From the NCBI RefSeq assembly GCF_964355755.1, contig NC_092677.1, positions 5,168,101 through 5,232,100 of the forward strand: a stretch of 64,000 nucleotides of DNA, given 5' to 3'. A program made the position numbers and the translations under genes. Under the pieces are notes generated by a model. That model was given only the letters and a program-made list of their open reading frames with translations. It was not told where the DNA came from and ran no database searches. Below are positions 13,721 to 41,683 of the stretch, in pieces. This DNA is from Antedon mediterranea (Eukaryota > Animalia > Echinodermata). The first letter of the stretch is position 1; the number at the start of each line of letters is the position of its first letter.

Positions 13721-15450
13721 ATGTCCATCATAGCATCAGTTGCAAATAAAACATGCCGTCCACCATCAATGACCACATCGTCTCGAAGAAAGCCTGGTGC
13801 TATGTTGGTTTTGGAGTTCGAATTGCAAGTTGGACGGATGCCTTGGTCTGGACAACTTTCGTCGTAGGTTGGCTTGTCTTGCGAGGCTGGAAGGTTTAGG
13901 CAGAGTAGGATGAAGAGCAATTTGACCAACACCGATGTCATCACGCATTATGGTGTCCACGATTTCAGCTGCTGAGTCGAAAGGTCGTTCCAGAGCTGTA
14001 GCTTTTATCTTACGACGGATCACGGCCACCTTACCACGTCCTGTAGAGTAAAGATGAAAGGGAAAAAGAAATACACACATTATTAATCAGTAATTCACGA
14101 TCATTTTGAGTTAAAGCGCATGATTTGCAAACATGTTTTTTTAGTTTTATATTGATCGAAACGTCGAGAAACTCAACAGTTTTCGAGAAACTCAACAGTT
14201 TTCGGAACAGATATACGTGGTGTACTTTATCAAAAATTTGATTTTGCCATGCATAATATATTGCTGAATAAAAAAAAAATGTGGATGTGAGATGATAAAA
14301 ACTATAAATGCACGTACCTGGCATCATCCCGCATATGTGCTCGTGGAGTCCTCTAGTATATACCCCATCTCTTTCTAAAACCGTTGCTTTACAGGTTAAG
14401 GCAGGAGTCCTACGGTAGCACCGCCAAGTTGTGTTCGCCCGCCTCCGATCAACCTTCTTTGTATATTGGTATCCTAGGCTATCTATCAAAGTTGCCTGTT
14501 AAATAAAAATGTCATATGATAATAAATCAAACGCAAAGAAAAGTTAGGCAAATCATGTTTCAACAGTTGGAACTTGCTTCAGAAGATCAACAAATAAAGT
14601 TTAAAATATTAATTTATAATTGGACCTGCCTCACTTCTTCCGGAGATTGCTTTATATTATTACATAAGAATAACATGTATAAGCACTGAAACAAATACTA
14701 TCTAATACGGTATAATTATTTAAAATAACAATAAGAATGTAAATTAAATCAATTCCTTTTATATCCTAGACGGATCTACTTTTTTTTCCGAAATAAAAGA
14801 TGAATGAATGAATAACAAAAATAAATTCTGAACTATGAAAAGAGCTATATAAAATACACCCTTACCTTTCCTTTCGCCGATGTGCCTTCCTCCACTACGT
14901 ACTGGATTTCGTCACCCTCGTCGTCATTTCCTGCCACAGGATTCGGCTGTGGATAAGGATTCTCCATCTCGACTTCCTGATGTACTTCTGGCTCAACAAA
15001 CTGTCCCAGGTCGGCGGCAAACACATCGATTTCATCTGGCATCGGTTGATCATTTTCAGAACATTGTCGGCAACTCCATTCAATATAACCATTCTCCACT
15101 CCTCTTAAATACTCTGCTCGCGTCACTCCACTATCACACTCGCGATGTTGCCATCTATCACACTCCTCACATAGCAGTCCTTCTTGATTCTCGATAACAG
15201 GTTGTTGGCATTCAATACAAGCGTTCATGTTGATAATTTGATAAAAAGTAATGTTCAATTGGAAAAAACTCCATTTTAAAGGAAAACGCAAGCACCAAAA
15301 AGTGCGTGGCATTTCTGTGCAAATAATAGATTATTGTCTTTATGTAATGTTAGATGACGCCGATACGCGGAGCTCCACAGATAATGTGACTAGGCGCGGT
15401 TAATGCGCTAACATCTAACATAAATTCAAAACAATTAGCCCCGCGAAGGT

Positions 15451-17104: not shown

Positions 17105-17261
17105 CGCCAGTAAGGCAAAAGGCACACCACAATAAAGACGACCGGATACGTAAGACTCAAGTAGAATAAGATCTTTATTCGTCAAAACCAAATATCACAA
17201 CAATAACATAACAACCAGCGGCCATGATATATATACCTAGATAGGGGGCGCTAGACTGGCG
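17105..17261 (-). repeat. 3' LTR (CGCCAGT...ACTGGCG)
   Basis: Direct repeat of 22402-22558. Confidence 0.95.
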
Positions 17262-17381
17262 TAATCATTTTTTTTTTCTCTTCTCATAAAACACAAAAGT
17301 CAAAAACAAAACAAAGCAAGCAAAAGCACTCAAAATCTAAATTGAATGGTCGAAACTTAACTATATAATACGAATGAAACA

Positions 17382-20300: not shown

Positions 20301-21269
20301 AACAGCCTGGAATGGGCCAACAGAGCCGTTGTAGGCTTTAATCATAGGATCGAAAACAACATCGTATTCAGTAAGAATGGATTGGAATTGGGATTTCACA
20401 TTCTGTGGGAGGATATGGTCTGGATCTAGCTTGACATAATCAGAAAACGCGACAGAGGAAGGAGGCTTACAGGGCTTAGATGGCGACTTTTGGGGAATAG
20501 CATTTTCGGCCGACAATGGCACAAAGGTGGGTCGGACTTGGCAAAAATGTTCGTGTCGTTTGATGACCTGAGGTGTGTCGGTGGAGTTTGGGATACGTAC
20601 CCTTCCCGCAACACTAGAGACCAAGTCAAACTTTGGCCAGGTTCGAGGAAACGTACCCTTACTATGTGGTTCGAGAGCAAACACGTCATCTTGTTGGATG
20701 AAGTCAGACGGAATGGCTACCTCGATAAATTCTCCCGGCCATATAGTGGTCTCCTTTTCAGGAGCACGAAGCACACAAGCACGTCGAACCGTGTTATGGT
20801 GAAGGCCCTGTACCTGGGAACCATAGATGTACGTGGTACCGTCACCCAATTTGATTTCCCGCTTCGCAGGTCGGAGGGCGATATCATTTAGCTCCATAAA
20901 AGGAGTTCCGGCAAGAATGTCGACGTCAAGTTTTTCGACAACGAGACCCTCAAATTTGAATTCCCTGTCGTCCCTTGTGAGAATAATTGTGGTTTCGCCT
21001 ACGACCGAAAGTGGGGAAGATCCGTCAGCCTGATGGGCAGACTGAGAGCTACTTTTAATGGTGGCGCCAAGGGCAGTGGCAGCAGTAAAGGCAATCATGT
21101 TTCCTGTAGCCCCACTGTCTAGTGTGATTCTGGCTGTGTGGTGTTGGTGAAATGTGTCAAGGTATGGGGACTGGCGAACTTGGACTCGTAAAGCTGTCGA
21201 CGGTGCACTATTATCACCAGGTTCATCCGAGGTGTTATCATCATCGATGATGCCAACGATTTGTCGGGC
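17382..21269 (-). CDS. pol: Gypsy pol polyprotein (protease, RT, RNase H, integrase)
   Basis: The frame is open upstream of the listed ATG and includes the LDSGA protease motif. Also [32 protein letters not shown] (RNase H), H..H..C..C, and the ADV/RTDP/EKAV integrase triad. Confidence 0.93.
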
Positions 21270-22203
21270 TTAAGGCCATGTATTTCCTGTCTGACTCGGG
21301 CAAATGAGGGCATTCACTGAGGAAATGCTTGTCGTCCGATCGGCCGCTCTGTTTACAGATAGGACAGGACTTGTGTTGGGAAAACTGTGGTCGGGAGAAT
21401 GACTGCCGAGCATTGGAATTTCGGCGTGAATCAGTAGAGCGGGGTGTGAAAGCTGAAGGAGAGCGAAATGTGGATGACCGAAAAACACGCGCATCATCCG
21501 CAGTTCGTAACTCTTCTAAGAGAGAGTCTAAAGCTTGAGAAATCTCCGGTTTCACTGACGCTAGAGTTCGAGTGCGGAGCTCAGTGCCATACCTTTGCTT
21601 AACCAACTTAGGAAGGCCTTTGTGGATGAGAGAGAGCCAAGTAAGAACTACCAAATTTTCCAACGAGGGTGAAAGTTCTTCGTCCTCCTGTATTTGGGCG
21701 TCATGGTGGGAAATGCCCCCGTCTTGACGTAGTAAATTATCATGGACGAAAGCAACTAAGCGCTGATAGAGATCTTCCGGCCTTTCATTATCTTGTAAAA
21801 GTATATCAGCAAAATCAATAAAATGGGCGCCGGTTGACTGGAATCCATAATGCAGTCGGATAGTTTGCCAAATTTGTGAAAGTGAGGAGGAGCTTTTAAC
21901 AATGGTATTCCGGGAAATTATAGGGCAAAAATTAGCGATCTGACCGAGCATGAGTTCAAGGATAGTGAGTTTTTGTTGGGCGGTATGACGACGTGCAACA
22001 GGTACCTCCTCATTGTCGTCAGTTAAGCCGCGAAGGGGGGATGCCCTGGTTTTGGGACGCCAAACAGAACCATCTAGGAGAAATGGGGCAAAATTTGCAT
22101 CAAGTGAGAGTGTGTAGATAAGGTTTTGCTTCCAGTTTTCGAATGTATTTATAGTTTCGTTCTTGGTTAAGCACCATTGCTTGGGTGCTCTAGTACCGGC
22201 CAT
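21241..22203 (-). CDS. gag: Gypsy gag-like protein
   Basis: [10 protein letters not shown] start just downstream of the PBS; C-terminal CPICK...HFLSEC zinc-knuckle-like motif. Confidence 0.85.
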
Positions 22204-22401
22204 GGTAAGAAATATATACAGAAGTCTAGGTGTTGTCAGTTGCACGTGTGAAGCAACAGCCGATCGGCGCCTGTGAAAGCGTAGAGTATGTGATGATATG
22301 CTAGCTCGATTTGTTGGGCTAGGCCTACTAGATTAGGTAGGCTACTCACCAGTACTAGTCGAATAATGGTGGGTGGGCTCGTAATCGTATAGCTGCCACC
22401 A

Positions 22402-22558
22402 CGCCAGTAAGGCAAAAGGCACACCACAATAAAGACGACCGGACACGTAAGACTCAAGAAGAATAAGATCTTTATTCGTCAAAACCAAATATCACAACAA
22501 TAACATAACAACCAGCGGCCATGATATATATACCTAGATAGGGGGCGCTAGACTGGCG
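22402..22558 (-). repeat. 5' LTR
   Basis: Direct repeat of 17105-17261, followed on the minus strand by the PBS. Confidence 0.95.
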
Positions 22559-23373
22559 CTGCTTTAAACGTCAATTTAGCAACTTATTAAGTCGTTTCAT
22601 AAGCAGAGAATGTATAAAGCAAGTATACAATGCAGACATGTTAGATAGAAATATACTAAAAGACATGTAATAAACGTGTTAGAAGAACGTAATAATTGTA
22701 CTTTCTACACCGAGCGGCGGAAAACCCATTCACAGTCACAGTTATTTGAGCGAATACTGTACTTGGCCTAAAACACTAGCGCTGTATTTTAATTTAAATA
22801 TTTGGCTTACGGTTACGAAAATACAAGGAAACATCATTTTATAATTTTACTATTAATATTATTAGGCTATTTATTGACCTATTAAAGATCGCTAAATATG
22901 TTTTTTTTTGTGGGGGCTTAGGTACAGTAGCTCTCTATTCTAGCCTCCCTGTTGTACACTTCTCACTGTACGCCTCACATTATATAAAATAATACGACGT
23001 GAACTCTAAACAAAACCCCGATGAAAAACAATTTACATGAATTCTATAAACTTTCTTATTTATTGTTTGCCTAAACAATAGAGAAAAAATAAACTTTGTT
23101 ACATACAGTAACAGGCGGGTTCAGATTACCTAAATATGATGGTAGAGGCCTAAACAATAGAAACAAAACAAACTGATACCCACGTGTGTGTTGTCGCGGG
23201 CGTCGTACCGGGAGTTCCATATTTTACCAGTAAAAAGCTACAAAGTGATGACGTCATGGTCCACACGGCAAATACAGGCACGCGGCAATTACACATATTT
23301 TACACGCGCGACAAACGCGGGTTATGGTACATGATTTGTAGTCAGTACTGTAGTGTGTATTCATCTGTTGCAG

Positions 23374-26300
23374 GAAAAACTGCAAAAATTCATTTTAATA
23401 TGTTCTTAAAACAAGAAATTAATCAATTTATTTTTTGTAAACTTGAATCCAATGAATGGAAGAAAATTGCCGATAGTTTTACAGATTGTGGCAGATTTGA
23501 AGTTCAATATGATAATAAAAAGCAGACTGGTTTTCTGGAAATATCTAAAGTTGAAACTTCTGATGCTGGTGAATACCGTTGCCAATATATGCCTAAAGAA
23601 AATGAGAATTTTATTTATTCAGCAAAAAGCCAACTACAAGTTTGTAAAACGTGTAAGTATACTACAAATTGTAGTTTTGCCATATTTACATTATAAAGGA
23701 CTGTTCAAATAAAATATTAAGATGCTGGAATGAAAACTATAAGTTAGGGAAAAATAAATTTGATTTTCTTTTTTTTTTTTTTTTATTTTTATCGTGTTTT
23801 GTTAGTACTTTACAAATCATTAGTGCGCACAAATCACAGATATTTTTGATACACTTTACAACACAGAATTTGACCTAAAATGTATTCATACTTTTAGATA
23901 TGACACATCCGGAAACAGGATTCTTGTGTGTGCAATGTAAGTACATATTTTGACTCTTTTATTGTCTCTATGAAAAATAGATGTGATAATTAACTGTTTA
24001 AGAGCATACTTTCTACTTTCTATTAAGCTATTATCTCCTAAAAAAATTATTAAAAATTTCTCGAAATAATATTAGATAGGACGCATCGTAACATATACAT
24101 TAAAGCTTGTCTACGACAATTGAATAATTGTACCAACGGCGTCGCCGTAGGCCTACTCAAGCTATAAGCATTTCAGTCGATCAATTTATACCGTTAACGG
24201 TATTATCATTGTAAACGGTTTATTTGACGGTTACTTTTATATTTTACGGAACTCACGTTTATTCAATGATTTAAATATGACGATTTTTTTAAATGATAAA
24301 TAAGTCTGTCTGATATTGTTTGAGTAATAACATAATGAAAATTGTAGGAAATTTGGATACGCTCGATTGAATGTGATGAACTGTGAAGAAAGTGATAATC
24401 CAATTTTTAAATTTCAGATTGCCATAATGCCGTCATAACAGACTGGTCAAAATTTTACTTTAAATCATATCTAAAGTTCATTAGCTTTTATTATAAGTTT
24501 TAAAAAGTATAGGGGTCATCAACCATCCTTAAGAGCTATAATCGGTTTAAAAGTGGCATATTTTATACAAATTTGCATTAAATTACAAATTTTCAAGTGC
24601 ACGATTTTTAGAGTTTGACGTGGACGTGAGATATATAATATTTTTTTTTCGTAATAAATTAAACAAGCACAAGCAAGTTATGGTATCTAGCCTATTGATT
24701 TTTATTTTTATAATGTAGGTGAGGTGTTTTCTACAGCTGATGGTAGTGAACCAGGTAACACATACAGGTAAATTGTGTTATTACTATTTTAACAATTCAG
24801 TAATATACTAATGATGTGAAAAATCAAAGGAAACTAATAAGTACTAGTATGTAACACCTAAAAAACTCTAGGTCTAGCTGCATTTATTAATGTATTTTTC
24901 ACAATAAATGTCCTAATCCTTTGAAAGTGCACATGATGGGTTAAATAGTAGGTCTCGGCCACGGCAAATGTGAATTTAAAATAATTAATATGAATTTCAA
25001 AACATGGCAGCATTTTTAATATGTCACAGCACAGCAAATTTAAAAAGCCACATGGCTGCCACAGGTTTTCAATTTGTCTTGCCTTTTCAATTTGTCATCT
25101 TTGCCAACTCCAATGCATAATGTGAGTTTTGTCATGGTATTACACGATTATAATATAGTTTGGAGTACTGTATTAATTCAATATTAACTTGTAAGTGTTT
25201 ACCATAACATGTGTTTACCTTAACATTATACCAGTAGGTTTTATAGGTTTTCATATTCGTCGAAACTATTGAAAACATTTTTATAGTTTCTATTTATCTC
25301 ATTTTTGTATATTTTTTCAATAAGTATAAAAATGTTCCTTTGTTGTTTTTTAAGATATCCTGCTGTAGTCTTTATAAATTCCCATTTTCTTGTCTTTTGT
25401 GAGAAAAACGACTCAGATATAATAATGAGGAGAGGAAAGATGAACAGTAACGGTTTGATTGAATGGGAAAATCCAAAAGTGATTTTACAAGAAAATGGTA
25501 CAAGGTATTAATTTATATAATGAGAACATTATTGATGCATGAGTAATAACAATTCTCATTTCAAATTGTACTTGTTAAAGTGTTCCTGATGTGTCTACCA
25601 TTGTTGGTGCCAAAAATGTTTTTGAAACTTGTTCTTCACATGATTAAAACATGTCAATAATTTGTTCTTTATTTATTTTTTTACAGATTTCAGAACCTGG
25701 TGCCAATTGTGACAGATGTGAAAATGGGAAAGGTGATTCTCATGTGTGTTAGACAAAATAACAAGACAAAAGAGAGGAAGATAATAAAGATGAGAACAGA
25801 TGATAATGGAGAGAATTGGAAAGGACCAAGTGATGTACAACTTGATTTGAAAGACATTCCAGTAGATAGTTTAAGTAAGTAGATTTTGATTTGTATTTGT
25901 AATGAGAGTATGGGTGGCGCATTTGGTTAAAACATTTGTACTCCAATCTTTATTTCTTTTTTAAAAATAGCACTGATGAATATTTTGTGACTATATACTT
26001 AAAAATGCTGGATTTGTGTAAATTTACATTTTTCAAGGAGGCATTTTTTGGTTGATTACATTTTATAGATGTCACTAGCGAGAAGAAGTATTATATAGGA
26101 TATCTTTTTTCAGGGTTATTTTATTTATTATTAGGCTATCGCTCTCTATAGAGTGATAGCCTATTGTAATTGTCAAAAATTTCATTTTTTCTGCTCATTT
26201 TTTGTGTCTCGCAGATCTCTAAAACGGCGAAAGCTGTTCAGCTGTAACTCGGCCAGTAGGTGCACGTATATATGTAGTTGTGCACCTGACTTTGGCTTAA

Positions 26301-29300
26301 TGAAAATATGGCCGCGTAGCGTAACTACGATTTTCTGAAATTCTTAAATTGACTATAACTTAAAAACTAACAGCCTTTTTTAAATGAAACTTGGACACAC
26401 GTAAGCTTCATGTCAAGGGTCATCTTTCTGTATCATCAGCAAAATTTTGAAGATTATGTTTTTTTCGCGTACGCGCGCTTTGAAAGTTAAAAATGCTCTC
26501 TACACGTTTCAAGACATTTTAAGCATTTCTACGGTGGCCTATAAGTGTCACAGCAACTTTCAAAAAATATCACGGCAATTTTTTCAAAAAAATCCACGGC
26601 AATTTGAAAAAAGCCACGGCAATTTGAAAAAAGCCACGGCAAATTAAAAATAAAACATCGCGGCAAATTAAAAATAAAACATCGCGGCAATTTAACAAAA
26701 ATACCACGGCAACTTAAAAATGAAACACCACGGCAAATTAGTATTGAAACACCACGGCAAATTAATAATGAAACACCACGGCAAATTACAGAATGCCACG
26801 GTGGAAGTGAAACCTTTGGAATCTTCGATTTTTTCTGAGGTAAGTCATTATTTGTGCATTGATGTAAATATTATTATTATTATTATTACTTGTATAGCGC
26901 ACATGTATACAACATTAATTATAATCAGCGTCGCTTCACATCAATTAGTATCGTAAATATTATATTATATTAATATATTTAACTGCAGCAGTTTACGTCT
27001 TTATTGCACTCTTCTTGAACTTTCTAGGCCGGGCTAGACCATAGGCCTTATTACAAGGTAGGCCTAGGCCCTATAACATTCTACAATGTTTTAATATATT
27101 TACAGTATAAATCTGTTTTTTATATAACAAGTTTTTTTACAGTAGACCTAGCTACTACTGTAGGCCTAAGGCCTATGCCTTAGGCTAGTAGTAGGCATAG
27201 CTAGACCTAGTGCAATAAACACGTAAATGCTGCATTTAATTAAATTAATAATAATATAATAATTATTTATTTACTTCAATGCACAAATAATTACTTTACC
27301 TCAGAAAAAATCGAAGATTCCAAAGGTTTCACTTCCGCCGTGGCATTCTGTAATTTGCCGTGGTGTTTCATTACTAATTTGCCGTGGTGTTTCAATACTA
27401 ATTTGCCGTGGTGTTTCATTTTTAAGTTGCCGTGGTATTTTTGTTAAATTGCCGCGATGTTTTATTTTTAATTTGCCGTGATGTTTTATTTTTAATTTGC
27501 CGTGGCTTTTTTCAAATTGCCGTGGCTTTTTTCAAATTGCCGTGGCTTTTTTCAAATTGCCGTGGCTTTTTTCAAATTGCCGTGACTTTTTTTTAATGTT
27601 GCCGTGATATTTTTTTTAAGTTGCAGTGACACTACCGTACATTTCACATTTTTCAAACAAATTTGCGTTGTGCACGTAGCCCATATGCAGCCTAGAAAGC
27701 CCGTTTTTGCGCTTGATTATTGTTCTATATATTTTTGTGATACATTTCTTTCATATTTGATGAATTATGAATGTAAAATAATGACACGCGTGCACGTCAA
27801 ACTTTAAAAATCATGCTCTTGAAAATTGGTAATTTTATGCAAATTTGTGTAAAATTATGCCTATTTTGAATCTATTATAGTTCCTCAGGATCAACAGTGA
27901 CCCCCGATATTTTTAACTTAATATGTAAGTAGATATGTTGTAGATATGAATCCATGCAGAATTTTTACCTCTCGGTGGTTGTAGACGTCATCGTATGGCC
28001 ACAGGAATGTAAAATATAGGAATTTTTTCTCTTTCGGCACAGGTCGACACATTCAATAGAGCGCATACCACGTAAACGTTTTTCAATATTCTATTACTAA
28101 AACAATTCCTCTTTAGACTTATGAACTTTTTTTTTAATTTAAAAAGGTCATCATTTTCAAACAATTGAATAAACGTGAGTTGTGTAAAATAAAAAACAAC
28201 CGTCAACTAAACCGTTTACAATGCTAATACCGTCAACTGTTGACGCTTATTGAACAATTTTGATCCAGCTGTTCGTTCGTTATAATCGTTTTAGTGTAGC
28301 CTACTGTAGACTGAGCATGATAAATAACATGTGCGTGTTACGATGCATTGGGCGATAGCCTAACTCGTCACCATGATGAGTTCAAATTTAGTTATTTTAT
28401 TATTATTTTCGCTTTAAAAAAATAAATACAAATAACTTGTTTTCCAGGCCTTTGTGATGGTGTATGCTTAAGTTCTGGGAAATTGGTTGTTGCAGGAGTT
28501 TGGAATCTGGAAAGTAATGACAGTAAGAAATTACATACAGTAATAAACAATCTATAATAGAGGTGATAAAATAAGGAACCTTTAAACCTTAAACAATTAG
28601 TTTAATTTAAGGCATTTTTCTAAATAAAAACACTTGCATTGCCAAACCTATTTTTGTTCTTGCATCATCAATGCGCGAGATTATGAAAAAGGGATGCAAT
28701 AACAATCATATTCTCCCATTTTATGATGATAATTATGTGATGTAGAATTTAATAAAATCATCTTAAAACAAGTTCCTTGATATACATAATTTACAACACA
28801 TGTACGAAAGTGTTATTTGTAGATACAGTACTGAGAATCAAATATTATACTGTACTTTATTTGTATTTTTCAAATTTCAAATTATTGATTGTTTATTTTG
28901 CAGATAATTTAATTGTAATGACAAGTACTGATGATGGTGATATATGGAAAACTGTGCCTGTCTCTAAACCAGGAGGTGTTACATTAGGAACACACATACA
29001 AGTAAGTTTAAAGAACACAAAAGTTAATTTTAGATTGGTTTCTTTGATACACATTATCTATATATTTGTTAACAAGCATTTGCAGCCTTTGTGCTGCTGT
29101 TTGTATGTTTTTATACAACTTACCGAATTAAATAAATAAATCACTATCACACACAAATATGTTTTTCTGCATTATACCAATTAGTCCTATAATGTGATTT
29201 GTTAATTAGATTGCTGAAAATGCAAATAATCAAGTTTGTATTCTCTGTTCATTGGAAGACTGCAAGAAGTCTGTTAAAGTTTACAGCAATGATGGATGTG

Positions 29301-30038
29301 AAACTTTAAAGATTCAGGATGCATTGTTAGAAATAAACGTAGGATGTCAGGTACAGTACCACAATTTCACCTACTTTGTTTTACACATACTACGGTTTTA
29401 TGTAGAGAACTAAAGTATATTAGCGTCATTCATTGTTTTCTATTTTATTAGTTTGACCTACACGTCATGTCGAAAAAAGCCTATTTCCCGAAATTTAATA
29501 AATATATTAATAAAACAACAATAATAAACACACAATTACGTAGTCTTAGTGTGATTTGTTAGTTTCGCAAAATAAGACAATTGGATTTTTAAAAAAAAGC
29601 TTAATACTATATCATAAAGTATGAAAAGAAGATACTGTAAATAAAATAAAGAAAGGCTATATTATTAAAATAGGCCTATAATTCCGTCTGTGTCATGTAC
29701 GTAAGCTGTCACGTCCAAAATATAAGCTGGGAAGGGTTGGCGTCGCTACGTTGTATGAACAACTCAAAGTTTTTTACTTGATCTAATCAATTATTGTATA
29801 AAAGCTAAAAATTTTATAACAAATAATGAACAATGATGTACCGCTACATATTTAAAAAAAATTATTCTATTGATTAATATTGCTTCTTCATTCATCATTT
29901 CACAGTTACTTATATTAACTGGGTGGTTTAGGCTCAATTTTTCCTTTATGGACGGTAATAATATTTAATTTAATCATAATTAATTAATTATGTATTATTA
30001 TCTAGGGTGGTATTGTACGCTTACCAACAAAGACAAAT
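23374..30038 (+). CDS. Ig-domain plus sialidase-fold (NEU2/3/4-like, Asp-box propeller) protein, probably catalytically inactive; 5' exons not seen; last exon broken at ~30038
   Basis: Phase-compatible GT-AG exons 23374-23652 (Ig, LEISKVETSDAGEYRC), 23898-23936, 24719-24767, 25355-25504 (YR/YPAVV...FLVFCEK...IMRRG), 25687-25874 (TDDNGENW), 28448-28522 (DGVCLSSGKLVV), 28904-29001 (STDDGDIW), 29210-29350 (SNDGCET...GCQ) and 30006 onward. Confidence 0.78.
24080..24640 (-). mobile_element. Diverged inverted copy of the internal part of the 26131-28393 element
   Basis: 24530-24630 aligns by eye in reverse complement to 27785-27890, and 24180-24290 to 28140-28240. Confidence 0.55.
26131..28393 (+). 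mobile_element. Helentron-like non-autonomous element (HINE/DINE-type)
   Basis: 5' hairpin TAGGCTATCGCTC...GAGTGATAGCCTA; 3' subTIR GCGATAGCCTAA (28352-28363) followed by stem-loop AACTCGTCA-CCA-TGATGAGTT; T-rich flanks. Confidence 0.7.
26530..27639. mobile_element. Non-autonomous IS3EU-like foldback element
   Basis: TACGG...CCGTA termini; perfect 6-bp TSD CATTTC (26524-26529, 27640-27645); ~330-bp TIRs containing ~21-22-bp CACGGCAA tandem units. Confidence 0.88.
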
Positions 30039-30464
30039 GTTTTGTTACATACAAATGGACGTACCTTGAAATCGGCATGCACTATATTGTTCAATAAAGA
30101 CACTGGTCGGAAACAAGATTCTATCATTATACTGAGATTAGGTTCATGAGTTAATAAACTCATGTGGAAAAAACTTGCATATCAAAAACAGTTTTGTCTG
30201 GCTAATCGGCTAGACTTCTTCAGCATGAGGTGATGTTATTAACTGTTCCGTCATTATAGATTTTTTTGTAACCTCAGTCAGAGGGTGTTTAATAATTAAC
30301 TGTTGTGTATTATAATTATACTTTAAGTAGTTTGTAGAATAAGGAGAGGATACTTTTTTTCGAATGAAAATATCTTCTATTATATTTGTTAAAACATCAA
30401 ATTGCAGTAAATTGATTCAATTACCTCGTTAGTCTAATAAAAAATAATTTATATCACATTGTAA

Positions 30465-30660
30465 TTCAATTCAAAATTATTTAATCATCCCACACGGGGC
30501 AATTCAAATAAAAAGGTCTGGATTAAAATGATCTTACAAAATATACAAAATATCACAATACACAGTACAAAACAAGTTTAATCAGCAAACGATTCGGTCA
30601 GACCTCCTAAGATAATGCAAACCTTCTCGATTTAATCAAACTTTTAAACCCCGGTTACGA
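30465..30660 (-). mobile_element. Probable LINE 3'-end fragment
   Basis: Reverse complement ends TTGCCCCGTGTGGGATGATTAAA...TGAATTGAAT, a hairpin plus short repeat tail typical of CR1/Rex-group 3' ends. Confidence 0.35.
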
Positions 30661-32201
30661 GGCGGGTTTGTGAAAATGATTGGGTTTGTCCGTCTGATTA
30701 TATTGAAATTGCTATTTCGCCGACATTCATTTTGTAGCGCACGTGGTTTTGCGAGTTTTAACGGATTGCGTTTATACCAGGACGAGGTCACTGCTTCCTT
30801 ACTAACCAGATATTTCCGTAATCACTGCAGTGTATATCAGGAAAATCTTCCTTTGAATTATAGGTCTTCGTTACGAGATTCGACTTTAGACTTGCATAAC
30901 TATTTATCCGTACTGTACATTGGGTTCTGCGTTACGGGCTTTCTGTGTGTGCACACTGTGCATTGCGTAGCGAGCTACCACAATGACGCACGCGGCATCG
31001 ACAGTTTGCGAGCAAATATTTTTCTACGAGGCCCTTAATTGTTTATAGTCCACGAATGACAACGTAGTCAGAGACTACGACATGCTATCGTTCATAAGAA
31101 ACGAAAGCAATCTTTTTCAACCAACGGTTGCCGTCCGTGGCCAATCATTAAGGACTTTACGTAATTTATGAAACACGACACGACGGGAAGCCACATGACG
31201 GTGCTCATGAATAATAATGTATGCACGAGCTTTAACAAAGTGGGCGGAGCTTAGAGTGAAATTCCGTCGTCTTTAACTTTTTGATAACGATAAAGTTGCC
31301 AATTTCCCGTTTACGGAGAACGACTAGAAATAATGTGTAAATATACAGTTCAAATTAACTTAAACGTGGAATTTTCTAACTCTAAATAATATTTGAACGA
31401 GGCCCTAACTAGGCCTATGCTGTATCACCAGAACCAAGCGATTCAGTAGAGCCCCGCGCCACGAAACAGGGGAGGGAGGAAGATCGTCGTCTCAGGGTTC
31501 GTTACTAATAAAACGGTTATGTTGGCTGTATACGAATTTACGCTCTAGCGAATACAGGTAATTCGTCTTCTCCCCTAACCGTCATGTTTTGTATGTCCCT
31601 ATTATCATGGCTAGTCTGGCTTTTAGTTCAGTTCCGAACCTTTATGAGTAAACACCATGGTTATAACTTAATTGGCTCGTCTAATTAGGAGAGCCATTCA
31701 TGTTTGATAACTATGGAAATTGCAAGAAGAGGTATATATGGATGGAAACAATTACCATCAATCAGTTTCGTATGTGAACGTCAAAGAAAGGCGGTACATA
31801 TTTTATCGTCCGTTAAGTCGTACAACACCGTTGGCGACTTAGGTTAACGTAACTCTCAACCGTACATACATTTTATAGACATAACAGTGGAAATCGGTTA
31901 TATCCGGGTAAACGTAATTTGGGTGTTGTGCGTTCTTAGCTATCCGCTGCGTAACGCACACCGTCCTGGTACGGATAAGGCGACGACGACAATTTCACGA
32001 GTGACAAAAGTATTCAGCCTACGACAGGCTATTTTTTTATAATATAAAAGGCTACGATCATATACGAAGCAGTGGAAGGATATCCTTTTACTTTATCGTG
32101 GACAATTATGTTTATTAAGCAGTAGGTCTACATTTAATGTATGGTCTATACGACGGCCACCAACTTAACTTTAATGGGCAACACACATCACTCACTACAA
32201 C

Positions 32202-32228
32202 CATGGACCTATAAAGTATAGGTCCATG
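32202..32228. mobile_element. 27-bp palindrome CATGG...CCATG with 7-bp TSD (micro-MITE)
   Basis: CATGGACCTATAAAGTATAGGTCCATG flanked by CTACAAC and CTACCAC (6/7 match). Confidence 0.55.
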
Positions 32229-33029
32229 CTACCACAACACCCACTTGAGTTATACCAAATAATTATACTGGGAGAGAGTGATGTTCCATTCATCGCCAAT
32301 CAATACGTTTGTATAAACGTATATTAAATAATATTAATTCTAGAAGTAGCGCACAATTCATATTACCGAATTTTGCCCTTGCGTAAATTTATATAGATTA
32401 TTGTAGTAGCAATTCACAACATTGTCAGTAGTCATTTCGAAAAGTAAAAGAAGCCCATCTTAAAAAAAACCCACCCAAGAGTACTACAAAAGGCCATGGG
32501 CTTCTTTTCGAAGCTTATTAATTTGTCTGATGTTAAAAAAATCTTTAAGATTATATTTTTGTTCTGTACATCAGTAGGCCATGGAATTTGTTCTGAAATA
32601 AAAGTTATTATTAATTGATAAGCTGAATCAACTTGCCTACAGAAGGAAAATCCTCAAAACAATGATGTATTAAATACCCGATATGCCCTGCTTTATAATT
32701 AATTAGAGCATTTCATACTATATTTTACGTTACACTAAATGTTTACTAGGACTACTGAATGTTAAACAAATAAAATTGATAATAAATCATTCATTCTTAA
32801 ATTATTAAATAGAATATCAATTTAAAAACACAATTTAATGAAGAAAGAACAATAATTAAAAATGTATATTCTGAATAAAATGGAGAAGCATAACTCACTT
32901 GTTTTGTGTGTAAAAATGATAATAAATACTATTAATTTATACATAAATTATAAAGGTAAACAAAACCTTATTTTGATCTATGTACACTTTTCTTTCTGTT
33001 ACGACCATCAATACAGCCACCAGAGTTTC

Positions 33030-33716
33030 ACATTATTTTTCTGTATATAAACTGTTCCCTACTATCACGTCTGCCGTCGCCTCTGTCACCAAATGAAGCT
33101 ACTAGTCCTTGATACTGATGATTTTTGCATTCGATTTAAATTTCTTCCTTTTCCTATAAACATGATAACATTAAGATTAGTTAAAATAAGTGTTTCTGAT
33201 TGTCTTTGGCCAGTTTAATAGTGATGTAAAGCAAGAATTTTATATGTTTACTTCTACTTTTGCAATGTATACTACTTTATTAGACGTAGGCTTGAAATAT
33301 CCCTCATCATCTCTGTCGACATCAGAGCTTGCTGAAACTTGGAGTCCTTGACTTGATAGTGATGTTGTTGACGTTCGATTTCTCTTGCTTCTCGCTGTTA
33401 ACAAATAAAATAATATATAGGTAAGTAAACGTGTATTGTTTATTTGGATAGCTTGTTATTCTATTATAGTTTTAGGTTGTTACTCTATGCTGAAATTTGA
33501 ATTGGTTAGCCTAACTTAGCATTTTTATTCAAATTGCTTTTGATTGCAATTCAATATAAAACCTGTGCCTTGTTTAGCCGAAATTGAATATAGAACGCTA
33601 ACAAAATGTTTACTTGTATTCTCGTTCTAGATCTTGCTTTATTTAACATCCTGGTATCACCAGACTTCACTTGTATTTCATTTCCATTCCCTTATTTTTC
33701 TAGGCGATGTGTTTAC
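33030..33716 (-). pseudogene. Orphan decayed copy of the cytoplasmic-tail exons of Ig receptor A
   Basis: NKARSRTRIQ exon end at ~33614; HHYQ...DVDRDDEGYFKPTSNK exon at 33275-33395 with a duplicated TCAAG frameshift; IECKNHQYQGL exon with an in-frame TAA. Confidence 0.8.
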
Positions 33717-34605
33717 TGAACAAGTTAAAACACACAGGTAGAATGATTTTCTTTTTTTTGTCTTGTGTGAGTTCTTCTCACGTTTATTTAAATTCTCATT
33801 GATGAATATATTATATACATATAAGTACATTTGTGACAATTAAAAGTAAGTGTTTAGAGTAGTTAAAATACCGGTATATTTACATAATAAGATGCCAGAA
33901 TTCATTATATTAACCATATATTTTCTCATTTAAAATTTTAGATACGATGTTAATTAAGTAGAAATGAAAAATGGCGGTAAAATACATGATTAAAATTGTC
34001 TTGTTAAACTATCTTATTTGTGATCTTATTTGTGTTCGAGTTTGTGTTCGAGTAGAGAGGCTATAAACTCAGGGGAGGAAAATGTAGTATCCTCCCTTTT
34101 CACCAAGATAAGATGGATGGTATGAAAAAAAGAGGAATGCAATAGGTTGAAAGTTAGTTATTTAGAATGATAGCATGAAATGGTATATTTAATGGAAACC
34201 GTAAGGTTAGAGTCCATACACGGTGCAAGTCCAAGATGCAATTTTGGCTCTGTGTGTATGTGAGACGCTTCATACCCGATGTCATCTTAGTACAACTACT
34301 ACTTACAATTTGTATTTACGGTATAACATATTATAGTAGTATAGAAGTATATATATTGAACAAATACACATACCTATAGATTAAATTGACACGTATACGA
34401 TATAAAATAATGCAAATATAGAAAGATATATATGTAAAACAAATACCAATACCTACAGATTATATTGACATGCTACATGTATTTGAACTATTGTCATCTT
34501 AAAAAGGTATACTGTATGTGATGCTTATAAACAGATTTTACGTTGATATGCAGGATTTGTGTCCATTATGATAAGGTAAGAAAGAAAAAGGAATCGATAA
34601 AATAA

Positions 34606-35830
34606 TTAAATTATTAACATCAAGTCTTTAGATAGTTTTAATAATTTATCTTTTAGGTTATTCGTCCATTTCTTCTGAGCCTTATGTAAATTATTCATAA
34701 ATTCATTTGTTAATAAATGCTTTAATTCATAGTAAAATAATCTCCAAATTATTTTTGATTCCTGATTTTGTTTCTTTTCTTTTCTTATTACTAAACACGA
34801 TTTATAGATGCAAAAAGTAAATATTGAAATAAGTTCATTTACAGTTTTCGTTTCCGATCCTTTAACAATATTACGCCAGGTTATATCAATCTTTTGTACA
34901 AAACAGTTTGAGATCAAAAACTTAAATACAATCCATATGGGTTTAATCTTATTACATGAAAATAACAAATGTTTTTCATTTTCAATTTCACTATTACATC
35001 TTTCACATATGTCATTCATTGAAAGTTTCCAAATTTTTAACTTACTTTTACACGCAAGAATACGATGTAGTAGTTTGAAATTGAATTGCGCGACTTTTGT
35101 GATATGTGTCATAGAAAACACCTTGTTATACCATACGGTATCCCATGCAAAAGTGTAATTTTGAAATTCTATTTCCCATTTTTCTTGTGCTATAGGAGTT
35201 GATATTATATTTTCCACAAATAAATTATAAAATAGTTTTGCATTAAGTTGTTTTGTATGAAGCCAAAAGCAATCGGTGTTTGTTTGATTATTTACATTAT
35301 TCACCATTCAAAATAATTTCCTTCCATGATTGTGGTATAGCATTCATTAGCCCTATATATTCAATTAATCCATTTTGTTTCTGTGATAGTAATGGTAACA
35401 CTTCATTCATTGGTAATAATATATTCTCCTTAATTATGTCATTCATTGTTCTAAAGCCTGCATCAAGCCAAACTTTGAAATAGATTGACTTTCTATTTAA
35501 CTGTATACATTTATTTTCCCACAATTGTTGGTTTTTAACGTCTTCAATGTTTTGTGGGTCAGACCAGTTAAAGTTGTTAATATTAACTATAGCAATTATC
35601 ATTTCTCTATAGAAAACAGGCAATAATTTTAGATCAGGATGCTCTTCATTGTTAATTTGAGTGATATTAACAGTATACTTAATAGGGTGCATAAAATAAC
35701 TCGGTATACATTTCCATTTTCCTGGATCTGGGCTAAGGAGTCGCTTAACCCAATTTAACTTCAATGCTTTGACTTTTGCATTCAAATTAATCATATTTAA
35801 ACCACCTTTATCTGTTTTTCTATTGAGTGT
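34606..35830 (-). mobile_element. L1/Tx1-type LINE ORF2 C-terminal fragment (5' truncated, frameshifted)
   Basis: KGGLNMINL..KVKALKLNWVKRL; FNFKLLHRIL; CERC...EKHLLFSC zinc-knuckle; two overlapping frames. Confidence 0.85.
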
Positions 35831-36137
35831 GGTAAAATGATTTTCATTAAAAAAACACAAATCATTTTAAATGAAAAGGAAACAAGGTAATTAGTATTGT
35901 GTTGACCAACAAACATTGGCAAACATTGTTTGCTGGTTATTATGTTTCTTACATTTAAGCAATCAATTATTAAGTTTCATTTGCTATGTTATTACCAATG
36001 ACATTAATATCAAAGAACATTTTGTAAATTGTATTTAGAAACAACTACGGTACAAAAGATGTCTCCAAAAAGTGGACAAGTTGATTCTAAAAATGTAAAA
36101 CATGTTTTTAAAGTAATTCTACACATTTACTATACAG

Positions 36138-38162
36138 TTTTCAGAATCTAGTACCAATTGTGACAGATAAGGAAAATGGAAAAGTGATTCTAATGTGTGT
36201 TAGACAAAATAACAACAAAAAAGAAATGAAGATAATAAGGATGAAATCTGATGATAATGGAGTCAACTGGACAGAACCAGAAGATGTACAATTTGATTTG
36301 AAAGGCTTACCCATAGATTTTATAAGTTAGTATAAGTTTATTTATTTGTATTGAAGTTGATATTAAATATCTGAGTTGTACATCATGGTTTTGAATTATG
36401 AATTAGTCATCTTAAGAACCATGGTGTGTGCCTCTATCTTAGTTTTTTCTGTTATTTATATTTTTCTAATGTCAGTACAAGTATTATTATTAAGATTATA
36501 AACCCATTTACTGATACCATACACAAAAAGCAACAATTAAAACAACCAGTTTTACACAAATGTTTTATGTAATTACCAAAATACTGATTTGTTATAGGGG
36601 TTTTATTTGTTTAAAGTTTTTTAATAAACATTTGTATAAAGAAAATTTTTACTTTTATCTATCTTGTTACTTATTGAAAAATGTTAATATATATTTGTTT
36701 TACTTTATGTAGTAAACAGTATAAATGTACTACAGTAATTAATGTGCAATTATATGAAATATGTATAAATTGTTTTTCAGGCCTTGGTCATGGGAAAATT
36801 GGCTGTTGAAGGAGTATGTAAGCTGAGGATATTGAGAGAATTATAGAAATTAATTTAATTAAGAAATCTTTTTAAAATTAAGGAGGTGCTCAAACATTTA
36901 TTATGTACATAAAGGTGGTTGTTGTTGAACTGTATAATTCAACAACAACCACCTTGGGAGGACACACACAAGTAAGAAACTTGGAAATGCCCAGGGTTTC
37001 ATTTCTAATTACAACATTTTAGTGCCACTGTGTCAAAAACCAGTATATGATTTGCTTATTAGGTTGTTGAATATGCAAATGATGATGTTTACATCAGCTG
37101 TTCATTGGAGGGACTGTAAACAACGTTTCCATGTATACGGTGATGAAGGATTTTTAAAAAGCGTTTGATGTCAAGACTGAGGATGCACACCAGGTGTACT
37201 CAACAATTTTTTTTTATTTGTGTCCCTTTTATAGTTTCATTATATCAATCAACGAGGCAGAGCTGAAATATAAAAAAAAATATTTTATATTCAACGAATG
37301 CAAATTATTCATAAATTCATATTGAATCATTGCTGAAGTATATGCCAGGATGCTAGGCCATTAAAAATGGCAGGGCTCCAATGCAGCGTTCTGGAACCAT
37401 TGCAACATGTAACTTGATAACAAACTGCTTATGTAATTTTTGTACACATTATAAGTTTAGATTTTATTTTCTATTCTAATATGAGATGTGGTTGTAATAA
37501 TAAATCCTGATCAATTGTTTTTGTTATAATTGTGAAACTGCTACCCCCCATATTCATTAATAATCAATTCATCAACAAGCAAGAATTTGGTGAGCGATAG
37601 CACACAATAAACTCATTTTGCGATAAGATTTTCTTTTAGAGGTAATTTGATTTCCACGATGAAAATTCTGTTCTATTCTACACAAGTTACCTGCATTTAT
37701 TAGCGTGTGGCCGGTATATAGTATCACACGTTTGCCTTGTGTGTAATAAAATCGGTTTTTTGGCTGAAATTTTTATTATAGAGGATATGCGAAACAAGCA
37801 TACCCCATAGTTACTTTAACATTATTTAATGATAATATCATTTTATGTTATTTTGGATTATATTATTATCTAGGGTGGTATTGTACGCTTACCAACAAAG
37901 ACAAATAAGTTCTACCAAATAGCAATGGCAAGTCATGGAAATGAAACAAATAAGGATCTTACACTTTACCTAAGTGAAGATGGTTGTAAAACCTGGTCTC
38001 AGTTTTACACGCTAGGTGCAGTGAATGCAGAAGAATCTGACCTAGCTTACTACAGTGTAAAAAAAAGGGAAAGAAGAAGCAAAAGGAATAGTGTGTGTTT
38101 ACAGTTATGGTTCAGAAACAAAGGGGTATAATATTGGAATGCAGTTGATGTTTGGTAAATAA
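36138..38162 (+). pseudogene. Second, decayed copy of the sialidase-fold exons, including the only complete terminal exon (37874-38162)
   Basis: 36138-36326 FQNLVPIVTDKENGKVILMCVRQ...SDDNGVNW parallels 25687-25874; deleted or frameshifted exons at 36781 and 37063; terminal exon NKDLTLYLSEDGCKTW...AEESDL with one extra A in the run 38059-38066. Confidence 0.8.
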
Positions 38163-39319
38163 TTAATTATGCCGGAAAAAAGAAATTCAGAAAAAGTTCA
38201 ATGCCTTTCCAAACCATGGCCACATTTTATTATTTGACTCTTTTATGTTTTGCTATATTTTGTCTTTGAATAATTCAGAATTTCCATAAACTTTAAAAAA
38301 AAAATGTTGTTTTTCTGTGGGTTCATTTATTCAACAAATTCACAGCAAATTGGATTATTAGCATTACAAAAATTGCACATAGAATATAATACTTACTGCA
38401 AATAGTCTGGAAAGAATTATTTAATTAACTTAAATATAATATTTTTACCGTAGTATTACAGTGGTGGTTAGGAAGCAAGTGTACTAATTAAATTACTTAG
38501 AAGTTTAGAATATATATTTCAAATTCCAAATTGTGAGAAAAAAGTCATACAAACATTTTAGACTTTAGATTTTATTAGAATTGCTAATAAAGAGTTAGCT
38601 GTCATTCGCGAATCACTATATTATTATGGGGTTTGTCTTTGAATAATTCAGAATTATTATGTGGTTGGGATATAAAGTAACTACATTATTTTATATCCTT
38701 TTTTGTTATTAGATTTTACAATTTCCATATCTTTAGTAGGGGCCAACTTTTAACATTAATATCATATGTATTATGTATGTAATGTATTAAGTAGTATAAG
38801 TACTATATTATTATAGTTTTTGAACATTCCTTTTCTTTTAATTCTCCTGTGCTCTGTAGTCTTGTTTGCCGTGTTGTAAATATTGATGTTCATGTCCCAT
38901 TTATAAATCTTCTCCACTGTTTTCATACTTTAATCATTTCCATGATAATAACAATAATAGTAATAATAACAATAGTTCATTCTTAACCCGGTCATTTTTG
39001 TGTGCCATACTATTTTGAACAAGATGTGCATAAACCGAACGTCATACGTTTTGCATAGTTCTTCAAAATAATTAATTTACTTATACAAAACATGAACTTC
39101 TATGTCACTGCAACAGTGATGAATGAATAATTTGTGATGAAGTCACAGAGACTACGTGAACATGAACCAAATAAAAAAAAACGCCGCGAAGAAACAGCAG
39201 TCAAAATAAGCTCCGCGCTGAAAGAAAATGTAATTATCATTTACAGAATTAAACACGGAGTAAAACAAGTGTTTTTTAATTGATTAAAATACCTGTATTG
39301 TGCTTCTTTTCATAGTGCA

Positions 39320-39988
39320 TTACACCTACATTTTTATTCTATTATGGCGTATAATTACCGAATGGTAGAAAGAAGCAGCGGCGACGGTAATAGCGTGTGT
39401 TTACACCTACATTTGTATTCTATTATGGCGTATCACCAAATGGTAGAAAGAAGCAGCAGCACCGACGACGGGAATAGCGTGTGTTTACACCTACATTTGT
39501 ATTCTATTATGGCGTATATCACCAAATGGTAGAAAGAAGCAGCAGCAGCGACGGAAATAGCGTGTCTTTACACCTACATTTGTATTCTATTATGGCGTAT
39601 ATCACCAAATGGTAGAAAGAAGCAGCAGCAGCGACGGAAATAGCGTGTGTTTACACCTACATTTGTATTCTATTATGGCGTATCACCAAATGGTAGAAAG
39701 AAGCAGCAGCACCGACGACGGGAATAGCGTGTGTTTACACCTACATTTGTATTCTATTATGGCGTATATCACCAAATGGTAGAAAGAAGCAGCAGCAGCA
39801 GCGACGGTAATAGCGTGTGTTTACACCTACATTTGTATTCTATTATGGCGTATCACCAAATGGTAGAAAGAAGCAGCAGCAGCAGCGACGGTAATAGCGT
39901 GTGTTTACACCTACATTTGTATTCTATTATGGCGTATCACCAAATGGTAGAAAGAAGCAGCAGTGGCGACGGTAATAGCGTGTGTTTA
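39320..39988 (+). repeat. Minisatellite, 8 copies of an ~81-86-bp unit with variable (AGC)n
   Basis: TACACCTACATTTGTATTCTATTATGGCGTAT(AT)CACCAAATGGTAGAAAGA(AGC)n..GACGGTAATAGCGTGTGTT repeated. Confidence 0.95.
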
Positions 39989-41683
39989 CTGCTATTGCTC
40001 TGGAAAATTATGCAAAGAGGACAACACAGAAAAATTCTGAAAAAAGGGAACGTGATACGATGGGTCTTGTTTCCACAACATTGCATGTTGATTACATATG
40101 CATGTTTCAGCAGTGAGAGGGTTTAATGATTATGATGGTACTGTGTGTGGACGTGACTCTTTACCCTTCAGATATTTTAGAAAATGGTAGAGTTTGGTTC
40201 AATTGCTTATAATAGGAGGCCTATACTTAATGCCTATAATAACATTTCAATCCTAGTTCAAAGTTAAAAATCTGTTATTGCATTCAATTGTGATTGAATG
40301 TTACAAGTTAATAAAAATATTAAAACATTAAGATAAACATTTACACTAAAACAGTTTTAATTAATGTATAATAATATATAAAAGCTATAATACATGCAAA
40401 CATTATAGTAAAATTTGTCGAAAATTCAAATACTAATGTAAGTGGAATATAAAATGTCTCCTTATTCTACAACTGTTTTGATCAATCATCACCTGATTTC
40501 ATCAACAGCTATTAGTATAGGCTAGATGATAATAATAAGCAAGACTCTAAATACACATATAATTATAACGCCAATAAACCAACTTTTTGATAAATTACGT
40601 TTGCTCTCAATCAACACGCTCCTCCTTTACCCTCTTGAACATAATATAATGTATTTGTTTCGATTTCGTAAAAAGAAGTCATTTTATTCTCGCTTTTTAA
40701 ACTAACTTCTGAGACAGGTAGTTAATAAGTTCGATTATATGCTCCTTGTTTTCCAGTTAAAATTATTATTTCTGCTACTCGGAAAAGTGTATTGTTTAAT
40801 TATTCAAATAGTGTAGTAAGAAAGGTACTGGCCACAAATGTATTGTTGATTGTTGTTAATATCAGGCAACACTGTGATTTTACTCTGCAGCAGCTGTGTC
40901 AGTTATTTCTAGCCTTCTGATTATAAACATGTTGCTAATTTATGTTTTATATTTTATACGGCAATAATATGACTTATTACATGTCTTAAAATGCCTCTCT
41001 GTAAAATAATTGTATACAGAAATGGTATCTCACTGGGTAGTTTAAACAATCCCCTTACTGACGTGCTTATTTAAATACTAATCGTATAGCACAAAAAATA
41101 ATCCTCAAAAATTGTGAAACACAAAGGAACTGTAGATTGATTATTAGAATATAATTAATATATTTTGTTGCTGTACATTTAAACTATGCGAGAAAAACAG
41201 TACAATTGAGAATAAACTATAATGAGCGTGTACATTTCTACCTATTTTACAATGCTCTAATTGTATTAGTAGGCCTAGTCCCCTAGATGACTATACATTG
41301 TTTTTTAGAATATAATTTTGTTGCTGTACATGGCCTTTAAACTACTACGCGAGAAAAAAGTACAATTGAGAATAAACTATGAGCGTGTACACAAATTTAA
41401 GTATAAACATTTCTACCTATTTTACAATGCTCTAGTTATATTAGTAGGAGGCCTACTCCCCTATAAATGATAATAACGAGAATAAACAAAACTTATTTTA
41501 TACATAAATTACGCTTAAGCAGCTTTCGATTGTTATTGTACTGTATATGTTTGTTTTGTTATGACTCTCATATACTCACAGAAAACCATTTTGTATAAGA
41601 CTTTCGCTTATATGTTTCCTCGTTTACCATCTACTTTATCTTTTATATTTATTTCCTTCCTTCAGAATTAAACAACATTTTAT

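Follow-up and report, generated by a model that had tools for sequence, protein, structure and literature searches.

The window analysed here is a stretch of 64,000 nucleotides (nt) of the Antedon mediterranea genome (NC_092677.1), in which an exon for an immunoglobulin (Ig) domain is followed by exons for a propeller of the animal sialidase (NEU) type. All coordinates are positions in this window, and P0003, P0004 etc. are labels for related database proteins. Nine exons with AG/GT ends can be joined from 23374 to 37874 in compatible phases (1,1,2,2,1,1,0,0), and the joined model is 60% identical to RefSeq protein P0004 over 361 amino acids (aa; E 1.5e-138). The exon chain is therefore not due to chance. 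A sequence-only reading had taken these as nine consecutive exons of one gene. The splice sites and phases fit that reading, but a separate last exon at 30006 and four further propeller exons (36138-37193) lie between 29350 and 37874. The nine-exon gene is a chimera of two tandem copies, referred to as copy A and copy B (Table 1).

Copies A and B of the propeller gene

The eight exons of copy A between 23374 and 29350 have canonical splice sites and form 339 open codons. The first encodes an Ig domain, as had been claimed. It lacks the B-strand Cys, and in tblastn comparisons its counterpart in the intact paralogues is an Ig domain located after the transmembrane helix, not one of the ectodomain. 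Given that the homology extends at least 10 nt upstream of the acceptor at 23374 (tblastn matches begin at 23364-23367), this acceptor is probably a cryptic site within a 5'-truncated Ig exon. Where the 39-nt exon lies, one or two complete Ig domains are present in the paralogues, and a by-eye comparison suggests that this exon likely represents both ends of an internally deleted Ig exon. Asp-boxes were found in the joined model at the four positions previously reported, three of them clear and one, the third, degenerate. The letters of the junction at 30038, where the last exon of copy A is broken off, are also present as a loose end in contigs of the DNA-like run X4. The segment 29993-30038 is identical to 37861-37906 over all 46 nt (self-blastn) in copies that are elsewhere about 80% alike, and the last exon is the most conserved exon among the paralogues (75-84% at the aa level); gene conversion or a crossover point may account for both.

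In copy B, the A run at 38059-38066 of the 37874 exon is one letter longer than in the paralogues, and the spliced frame through this exon ends at a TAA (38129-38131) before the last propeller strands, which neither copy in the window retains. With this premature stop and the other frameshifts in copy B, the earlier statement that the reading frames had stayed open does not hold. Likewise, the VYS motif that had been paired with LYE of active enzymes occurs in a shifted frame only, outside the spliced frame. A sequencing error as the source of the extra A was considered and is disfavoured, as record 14 of run X3, a DNA-like contig 76 nt long (depth 35; 33-37 in the flanks), agrees with 38033-38108 without differences or gaps; just 26 letters of it lie left of the A run, fewer than the 31-letter rule requires, and run X3 may derive from the assembly's own sample. 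The joints 25437-36125, 28951-37056 and 29304-37857 seen in DNA-like runs were rejected as evidence of splicing, being matches to paralogous copies at 85% likeness. For 23300-25950, no RNA run was listed, a blank that carries no weight as to expression.

Between the copies lies a broken duplicate of the cytoplasmic-tail exons of a neighbouring Ig receptor with tyrosine motifs. Together with repeat spacings of 10451 and 9439 nt, this fragment points to a tandem duplication of about 10 kb that would have included a convergent gene pair.

Table 1. Positions of the exons and other features in the 64,000-nt window
Feature	Coordinates	Strand	Evidence
Copy A Ig V-type exon	23374..23652	+	Pfam V-set E 2.9e-6; tblastn to P0004 773-866, P0003 115-206
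Copy A 39-nt exon	23898..23936	+	AG/GT, phase 1-1
Copy A propeller exon 1, YRYP motif at end (Arg21 equivalent retained)	24719..24767	+	
Copy A propeller exon 2, Asp46-carrying loop of active enzymes deleted	25355..25504	+	
Copy A propeller exon 3, Asp-box TDDNGENW	25687..25874	+	Pfam BNR_2 E 0.0066; 80% to P0004
Copy A propeller exon 4	28448..28522	+	
Copy A propeller exon 5, Asp-box STDDGDIW, His at Glu218 position	28904..29001	+	includes hidden Markov model (HMM) alignment to C. perfringens NanI
Copy A propeller exon 6, Ser at Arg237 position	29210..29350	+	includes HMM alignment to NanI
Copy A own last exon, cut, with repeat DNA following its first 33 coding nt	30006..30038	+	self-blastn
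Broken duplicate, located between copies A and B, of exons for the cytoplasmic tail of the tyrosine-motif Ig receptor nearby	33000..33700 (limits approximate)	-	repeats D10, D11, D14, D17; translation
Long interspersed nuclear element (LINE), 3' fragment between copies A and B	34606-35866	-	
Copy B duplicate of propeller exon 3, frame open	36138..36325	+	80% DNA identity to 25682-25905; 89-90% aa to P0004/P0005
Copy B counterparts of propeller exons 4 and 5, both degenerate; exon 4 with 17-nt deletion	36781..36971	+	pairwise alignment
Copy B duplicate of propeller exon 6, frameshifted	37063..37193	+	three tblastn pieces against P0004, different frames
Copy B final propeller exon (Asp-box SEDGCKTW; Arg304 replaced by Asn, Tyr334 by Glu)	37874..38170	+	
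Tandem array, units of ~84 nt, variable AGC runs	39370-40053		
Ig receptor: V, I and shortened third Ig exon	46146-41685	-	
Membrane exon of the minus-strand Ig receptor	43429-43335	-	
P0004-type gene, 5' half, continues past window end	50330-62539	+	
P0004-type gene, signal exons	50330-50377 and about 52434	+	
P0004-type gene, membrane and Cys-rich exon	60688-60963	+	

Since copy A is truncated and copy B is frameshifted, the locus is very probably pseudogene debris, made up of two broken copies of the 3' part of a receptor gene. No family exons were detected upstream of 23364 within the window (23 kb; tblastn, eight paralogues), and no ectodomain or membrane exons of a type I Ig superfamily receptor lie upstream on the same strand within the window; the 23 kb contain a long terminal repeat (LTR) element, a LINE and DNA transposons. 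No protein identical to the copy A exon 25688-25873 was present among the database matches of at least 110 aa, the best being 80% identical. Copy A could alternatively be a live gene with a shortened product of one Ig domain and four to five blades, perhaps a dominant-negative or soluble form, that ends by read-through into the repeat past 30038 (predicted 386 aa) or by splicing to 37874 (predicted 424 aa). Its eight exons are open with intact splice sites, its branch (length 0.35) is similar to those of intact paralogues, and exon 25688-25873 gives a ratio of nonsynonymous to synonymous substitution (dN/dS) of 0.51 against its duplicate over 62 codons, this being the one exon pair for which the check proposed earlier was run. 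Given the open exons and the ordinary branch length, copy A either died not long ago or may still give rise to a truncated protein. However, either ending would lack the strands that close the propeller, the transposon-filled DNA upstream offers no family start codon, signal exon or membrane exon, the Ig exon appears 5'-truncated, and the database search found no identical protein. A live copy A is thus considered unlikely.

The receptor family and its sialidase-like propeller

A search with the last exon identified seven proteins among 26 candidates, all of them RefSeq Antedon mediterranea proteins encoded on one 28.6-Mb contig. Ig and BNR_2 domains occur together in five of the seven, and BNR_2 scores above the curated cut-off in six. 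The exons of P0004 match 53266-62539 of the window at 95-100% identity. A profile built from six propellers was then searched against 1.84 billion representative sequences, giving 378 matches at E<=0.001. The ten at E<=1e-30 are all from Antedon or Anneissia japonica, as is P0018 (profile E 4.5e-18), and several of the crinoid matches carry Ig domains. Hence, the search for paralogues suggested by the sequence-only reading returned fusion proteins in both Antedon and Anneissia. The next-ranked matches were crinoid, brittle-star and hemichordate 'sialidase-2/3/4-like' proteins, which are assigned in the present analysis to the NEU5 group (PMC3431349). None of the 28 non-crinoid matches scanned, from 150 listed of the 378, had a V- or I-set domain; a word-based search with alignment gave no further animal members, and look-alikes in the ESM Atlas were ordinary chordate and bacterial sialidase clusters only.

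RefSeq models in the two crinoid genera (Antedon mediterranea and Anneissia japonica) fuse Ig domains to the propeller. The full-length models P0004, P0005, P0006 and P0008 start with a V, an I and a short Ig domain, have one membrane helix next and continue through another four to six Ig domains to the propeller; P0157 has the same chain without the N-terminal part. A loose end at 37890 in a contig of the RNA-like run X5 reads as an exon junction of P0006, and last-exon contigs of the same run lack the extra A of copy B; family members are probably transcribed, the RNA-like nature of the run being a guess. As judged by these gene models, the Ig-plus-pseudo-sialidase family is a real and novel receptor architecture, and no description of an Ig-plus-pseudo-sialidase protein or of a crinoid sialidase-like receptor was found in the open-access papers searched. 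The original proposal of an Ig domain fused to a catalytically dead NEU-type propeller and kept by selection is therefore upheld for the family, with intact paralogues in two crinoid genera, but not as one working gene at the locus, where the copies are truncated and frameshifted.

The catalytic residues were compared in an alignment of ten complete family propellers (eight from Antedon, two from Anneissia), the window model, six animal sialidases and 60 other matches of 330-400 aa as controls; the partial propellers P0001, P0002, P0012, P0015 and P0018 were excluded. Arg21 in the F/YRIP motif is retained in all ten and in the window. The acid/base Asp46 falls in a gap in eight and is Thr in two, with a gap in the window, as compared with its retention in 55 of 60 controls. 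The remaining four residues are each retained in 59 of 60 controls. In the family, Glu218 is His (10/10), Arg237 is Ser or Thr (10/10; Ser in the window), Arg304 is Asn, Asp, Glu, Phe or a gap (10/10; Asn in the window), and Tyr334 is Glu in eight, Ser in one and Cys in one. In addition, the second Arg of blade 1, an Arg41-like residue, is gone in all ten, the pocket loops are shorter than in intact enzymes, and the HMM alignment to C. perfringens NanI gave the same pairing of Glu with His and Arg with Ser. With five of six catalytic residues lost, the family propeller is, as read from this alignment, almost certainly catalytically dead.

The replacement of the active site noted previously is thus confirmed, and YRYP, HIQ, LCS and EESDL do correspond to Arg21, Glu218, Arg237 and Tyr334. 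Two details required revision: the deletion of the loop with the acid/base Asp46 had been overlooked, and the third Arg is not replaced by Lys, as the residue at Arg304 is Asn and the Lys lies one position later. In the portion of PMC3431349 consulted, the six catalytic residues are fully conserved across metazoan NEU1-5 and the word 'inactive' does not occur. Against this report of animal sialidases with all six residues, an expanded, lineage-specific crinoid family has dropped five and kept the fold in two genera.

Acquisition of new chemistry by the propeller was also considered, whereby the invariant His at the Glu218 position and nearby conserved Cys would form a metal or small-molecule site. 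Besides the His, Cys82, Cys131, Cys198 and Cys233 (P0004 propeller numbering) are invariant in 10/10 across the two genera. However, the His could be an early substitution that was merely inherited, the replacements at Arg304 and Tyr334 vary between genera, and the proposal derives from sequence. It is regarded as highly improbable.

A model of the P0004 propeller (predicted local distance difference test, pLDDT, 90; predicted template modelling score 0.91) had human NEU2 as its best structural match (Foldseek E 5e-17). The comparison with NEU2 proposed at the outset gave a superposition with Z 36.7 and a root mean square deviation of 2.6 A over 323 aligned residues, and the family propeller is predicted to have a NEU2-like six-bladed fold. 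A search of the PDB with single exons gave chance-level matches only. Between Antedon and Anneissia, the propeller is 42% identical and the Ig chain about 30%. The propeller is therefore conserved rather than decaying.

In quick trees, the dead propellers form a single group (support 100) that lies together with the crinoid NEU5-like enzymes on one side of a branch (Shimodaira-Hasegawa-like approximate likelihood ratio test 94-95), and the nearest intact relatives by profile and by tree are crinoid sialidase-3/4-like proteins. Forcing all intact animal enzymes together costs 11 log-likelihood units (approximately unbiased test, p-AU 0.048). The catalytic motifs are intact in the crinoid NEU5-like sialidases P0016, P0017 and P0022. 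Of these, P0016, from Antedon, starts with MGGSTS, which we take to be a possible myristoylation signal, and has no signal peptide as judged by eye. Since human NEU2 is cytosolic and P0016 lacks a signal peptide, the donor sialidase class is likely cytosolic.

Membrane topology, proposed mechanism and neighbouring genes

All four full-length proteins have N-terminal V- and I-set domains followed by one strong hydrophobic helix (Pfam; hydropathy 3.1-3.6), and the N-termini of P0005 and P0006 are hydrophobic by eye. Over the four proteins, 33 N-glycosylation sequons precede the helix (15.5 expected) and 40 follow it (36.3 expected). After the helix, P0004, P0005 and P0006 have a weaker Cys-rich hydrophobic stretch that is absent from P0008. 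Two separate segments match a family Ig profile: the one that directly follows the helix covers positions 3-51 of it, and another, 120-200 aa further on, covers positions 61-98. Four of five N-halves outscored all 1000 shuffles, and the Cys-rich stretch therefore lies inside one Ig domain. This split domain, the first after the membrane, spans 326-545 in P0004, occurs also in its paralogues and in the window (60688-62539), and is interrupted by an insert of 120-200 aa with a low-complexity linker. The Cys-rich stretch in the insert is presumably CYSTM-like, and the insert includes EEYxMM in four of five genes, YxxM being a docking site for the SH2 domain of PI3K. The B-strand Cys is missing from three of the six post-membrane Ig domains of P0004 (read from sequence). 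Given the lack of sequon enrichment after the helix and the location of the Cys-rich stretch within a split Ig domain, the Ig chain and the propeller are likely to sit in the cytoplasm.

If the Cys-rich stretch were instead a second membrane span, the Ig chain and propeller would be outside or in the lumen, where the propeller could serve as a lectin or as a decoy for sialylated or microbial glycans. Such a span would coincide with a 19-residue window of hydropathy 1.75-1.77 after the first helix in P0004, P0005 and P0006, Ig domains are usually extracellular, and inactive T. cruzi trans-sialidases are lectins, according to the part of PMC5504189 consulted. However, P0008 lacks the stretch, which elsewhere lies between two halves of one Ig domain, and sequons are not enriched past the first helix. 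Moreover, the T. cruzi lectin, as described in that part of the source, differs by one Tyr to His change, whereas the crinoid propeller has lost two Arg of the triad, blade 1's second Arg and the loop with the Asp, and mostly has Glu in place of Tyr334. A second span is accordingly held to be improbable.

The preferred reading, held at somewhat better than even, is that the intact paralogues are single-pass Ig receptors with a cytoplasmic dead propeller that binds proteins, and that the window contains two broken tandem copies of such a gene. The fusion in RefSeq models of two genera, the loss of five residues and the breakage of both local copies are taken as established in what follows. Before the split of Antedon and Anneissia, an Ig receptor gene would have gained at its 3' end, by capture, a gene for a cytosolic crinoid NEU5-like sialidase, whose active site would have been lost once and whose fold selection would have retained. 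Facing outwards, the V, I and short Ig domains at the N-terminus would bind a cell-surface ligand. Inside, the split Ig domain, with its putative Cys-rich membrane-anchoring insert and YxxM docking motif, would lead into an Ig rod that carries the propeller at its end as a terminal docking surface. The cluster would turn over by tandem duplication, with copies A and B as by-products. As the locus is most likely a dead copy itself, study is better directed at the intact paralogues.

Several points weigh against this reading. The alignment used for the propeller model contained active sialidases, which biases it to the sialidase fold, and the comparison was made at the level of the whole fold. 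The placement in the tree has a borderline p-AU value and a long stem branch (1.4). The split Ig region folded at a pLDDT of 35 only (AlphaFold), and the open exons and ordinary branch of copy A have been described above. Furthermore, the architectures of the paralogues are automated RefSeq models, so continuity from helix to propeller rests on gene models, and five Ig-containing models (P0003, P0007, P0011, P0013 and P0018) start after the helix. These last points would also suit models in which two adjacent genes have been merged, one for a short Ig receptor and one for a soluble cytosolic protein of Ig repeats and a dead propeller, akin to an obscurin-like scaffold. However, a single chain was modelled in five different genes (P0004, P0005, P0006, P0008 and P0157), one Ig domain spans the supposed boundary, and P0011 and P0018 begin exactly at the second half of the split domain, as truncated models would. 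Two merged genes are therefore considered very unlikely.

For the single-chain receptor, the propeller probably functions in protein binding, as a scaffold or decoy, by analogy with paramyxovirus H and G proteins (described in the consulted part of PMC3433257), on which this role rests. Binding of sialic acid at the old site is unlikely, given that two Arg of the triad are gone and that Glu occupies the nucleophile position. A scaffold or decoy that binds proteins is the likelier option; the idea of a glycan decoy is weakened by the loss of two of the three carboxylate-binding Arg and by the likely cytoplasmic position of the propeller. Among the roles put forward originally, scaffold or binding is thus favoured and decoy for glycans is not. 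An invertebrate recognition receptor that carries a folded Ig chain and a pseudo-glycosidase on what is likely its cytoplasmic side would represent a novel design.

The P0004-type gene (50330, plus strand) is arranged head-to-head with the minus-strand Ig receptor (46146), for which no signal exon was located. The I-set exons of the latter are 87% identical to those of the propeller-type gene, placing the two in the same ectodomain family. Its tail has repeated YQ(D/G)L ... DDEGYV(R/K)P motifs (YxxL, YxxP), and a 471-aa frame is open if degenerate tail exons near 42326 and 42139 are skipped. A canonical immunoreceptor tyrosine-based activation motif was considered for this tail and rejected on spacing. 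The cluster, with alternating propeller-type and tyrosine-motif genes, related ectodomains and pseudogenes, is a candidate set of crinoid immune or self-recognition genes.

Mobile elements were noted upstream of copy A and in its introns. Just upstream, at 17105-22558 (minus strand), is an LTR retrotransposon with 157-nt LTRs that are 99% identical and frames for gag (363 aa) and pol (1295 aa); it is a recent insertion, with motifs that we take to be Ty3/Gypsy-like. Pieces at 10571-15330 (minus strand), presumably a MULE-like transposase with FLYWCH-like and PHD-like parts, are split by the reverse transcriptase frame of a LINE (11712-13508). At 3418-8934, plus-strand exons with what we assume to be HECT-ligase-like motifs face minus-strand exons with an integrase-like motif, assigned in the same way, and this segment is possibly a transposon carrying a HECT domain. 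Within the introns of copy A, inverted repeat arms (24190-24626 and 27789-28240; 26587-26843 and 27296-27552) are nested non-autonomous transposons.

Comparison with known systems

The family propeller resembles human NEU2 (PDB 1SO7/1VCU), NEU3/4 and NEU5 (crinoid XP_071940874) in its modelled six-bladed fold, Asp-boxes, motif order and Arg21. It differs from these enzymes in the loss of five of six catalytic residues, in its shortened active-site loops and in forming the C-terminus of a multi-Ig membrane protein. PTK7/CCK4, with an Ig ectodomain and a cytoplasmic pseudokinase, is likewise an Ig receptor with a dead cytoplasmic enzyme, whereas the dead enzyme in crinoids is a glycosidase on a rod of further Ig domains.

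The propeller most likely works, if the analogy holds, like the H and G proteins of paramyxoviruses. In measles H and henipavirus G, a neuraminidase-fold propeller with a vestigial cavity is reused for protein binding, and none or one of the seven residues of the sialic-acid site is retained, as stated in the part of PMC3433257 consulted. These proteins are viral, extracellular and derived from HN, and the likeness is functional, no kinship in sequence being claimed. The inactive T. cruzi trans-sialidase (Tyr342His) is similarly a dead sialidase in an expanded family of surface proteins, and PDB 3PJQ was among the fold matches of the P0004 model. However, in the consulted part of PMC5504189, that protein has a single substitution, keeps sugar binding and is extracellular, whereas the carboxylate site of the crinoid propeller has been dismantled. 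None of the ten family propellers has the pattern of a trans-sialidase-type lectin, in which the nucleophile Tyr alone is changed and the sugar-binding residues are kept.

The gene cluster is comparable, by analogy, to Hydractinia Alr, where clustered Ig superfamily genes and pseudogenes have V- and I-set ectodomains and, in some tails, tyrosine motifs; a folded cytoplasmic Ig chain or pseudo-enzyme is not mentioned in the portion of PMC9546547 consulted. The paired plant receptors with nucleotide-binding and leucine-rich repeat domains (NLRs) and with integrated decoys, RRS1/RPS4 and RGA4/RGA5, are encoded head-to-head, and one member has a captured host domain that is often C-terminal (PMC9528088, in part). 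The propeller-type gene in the window is likewise head-to-head with a tyrosine-motif receptor, and the two share one ectodomain family, but the plant pairs are an unrelated class of protein, and the window includes one head-to-head pair only. It is conceivable, if rather doubtful, that the crinoid genes encode paired Ig receptors in which one partner has a signalling tail with tyrosine motifs and the other bears a dead host sialidase on an intracellular Ig rod as an integrated decoy or sensor. If so, the plant NLR pairs with integrated decoys would have a cell-surface counterpart in animals, and the genes would make up the first family of pseudo-sialidase receptors in animals.

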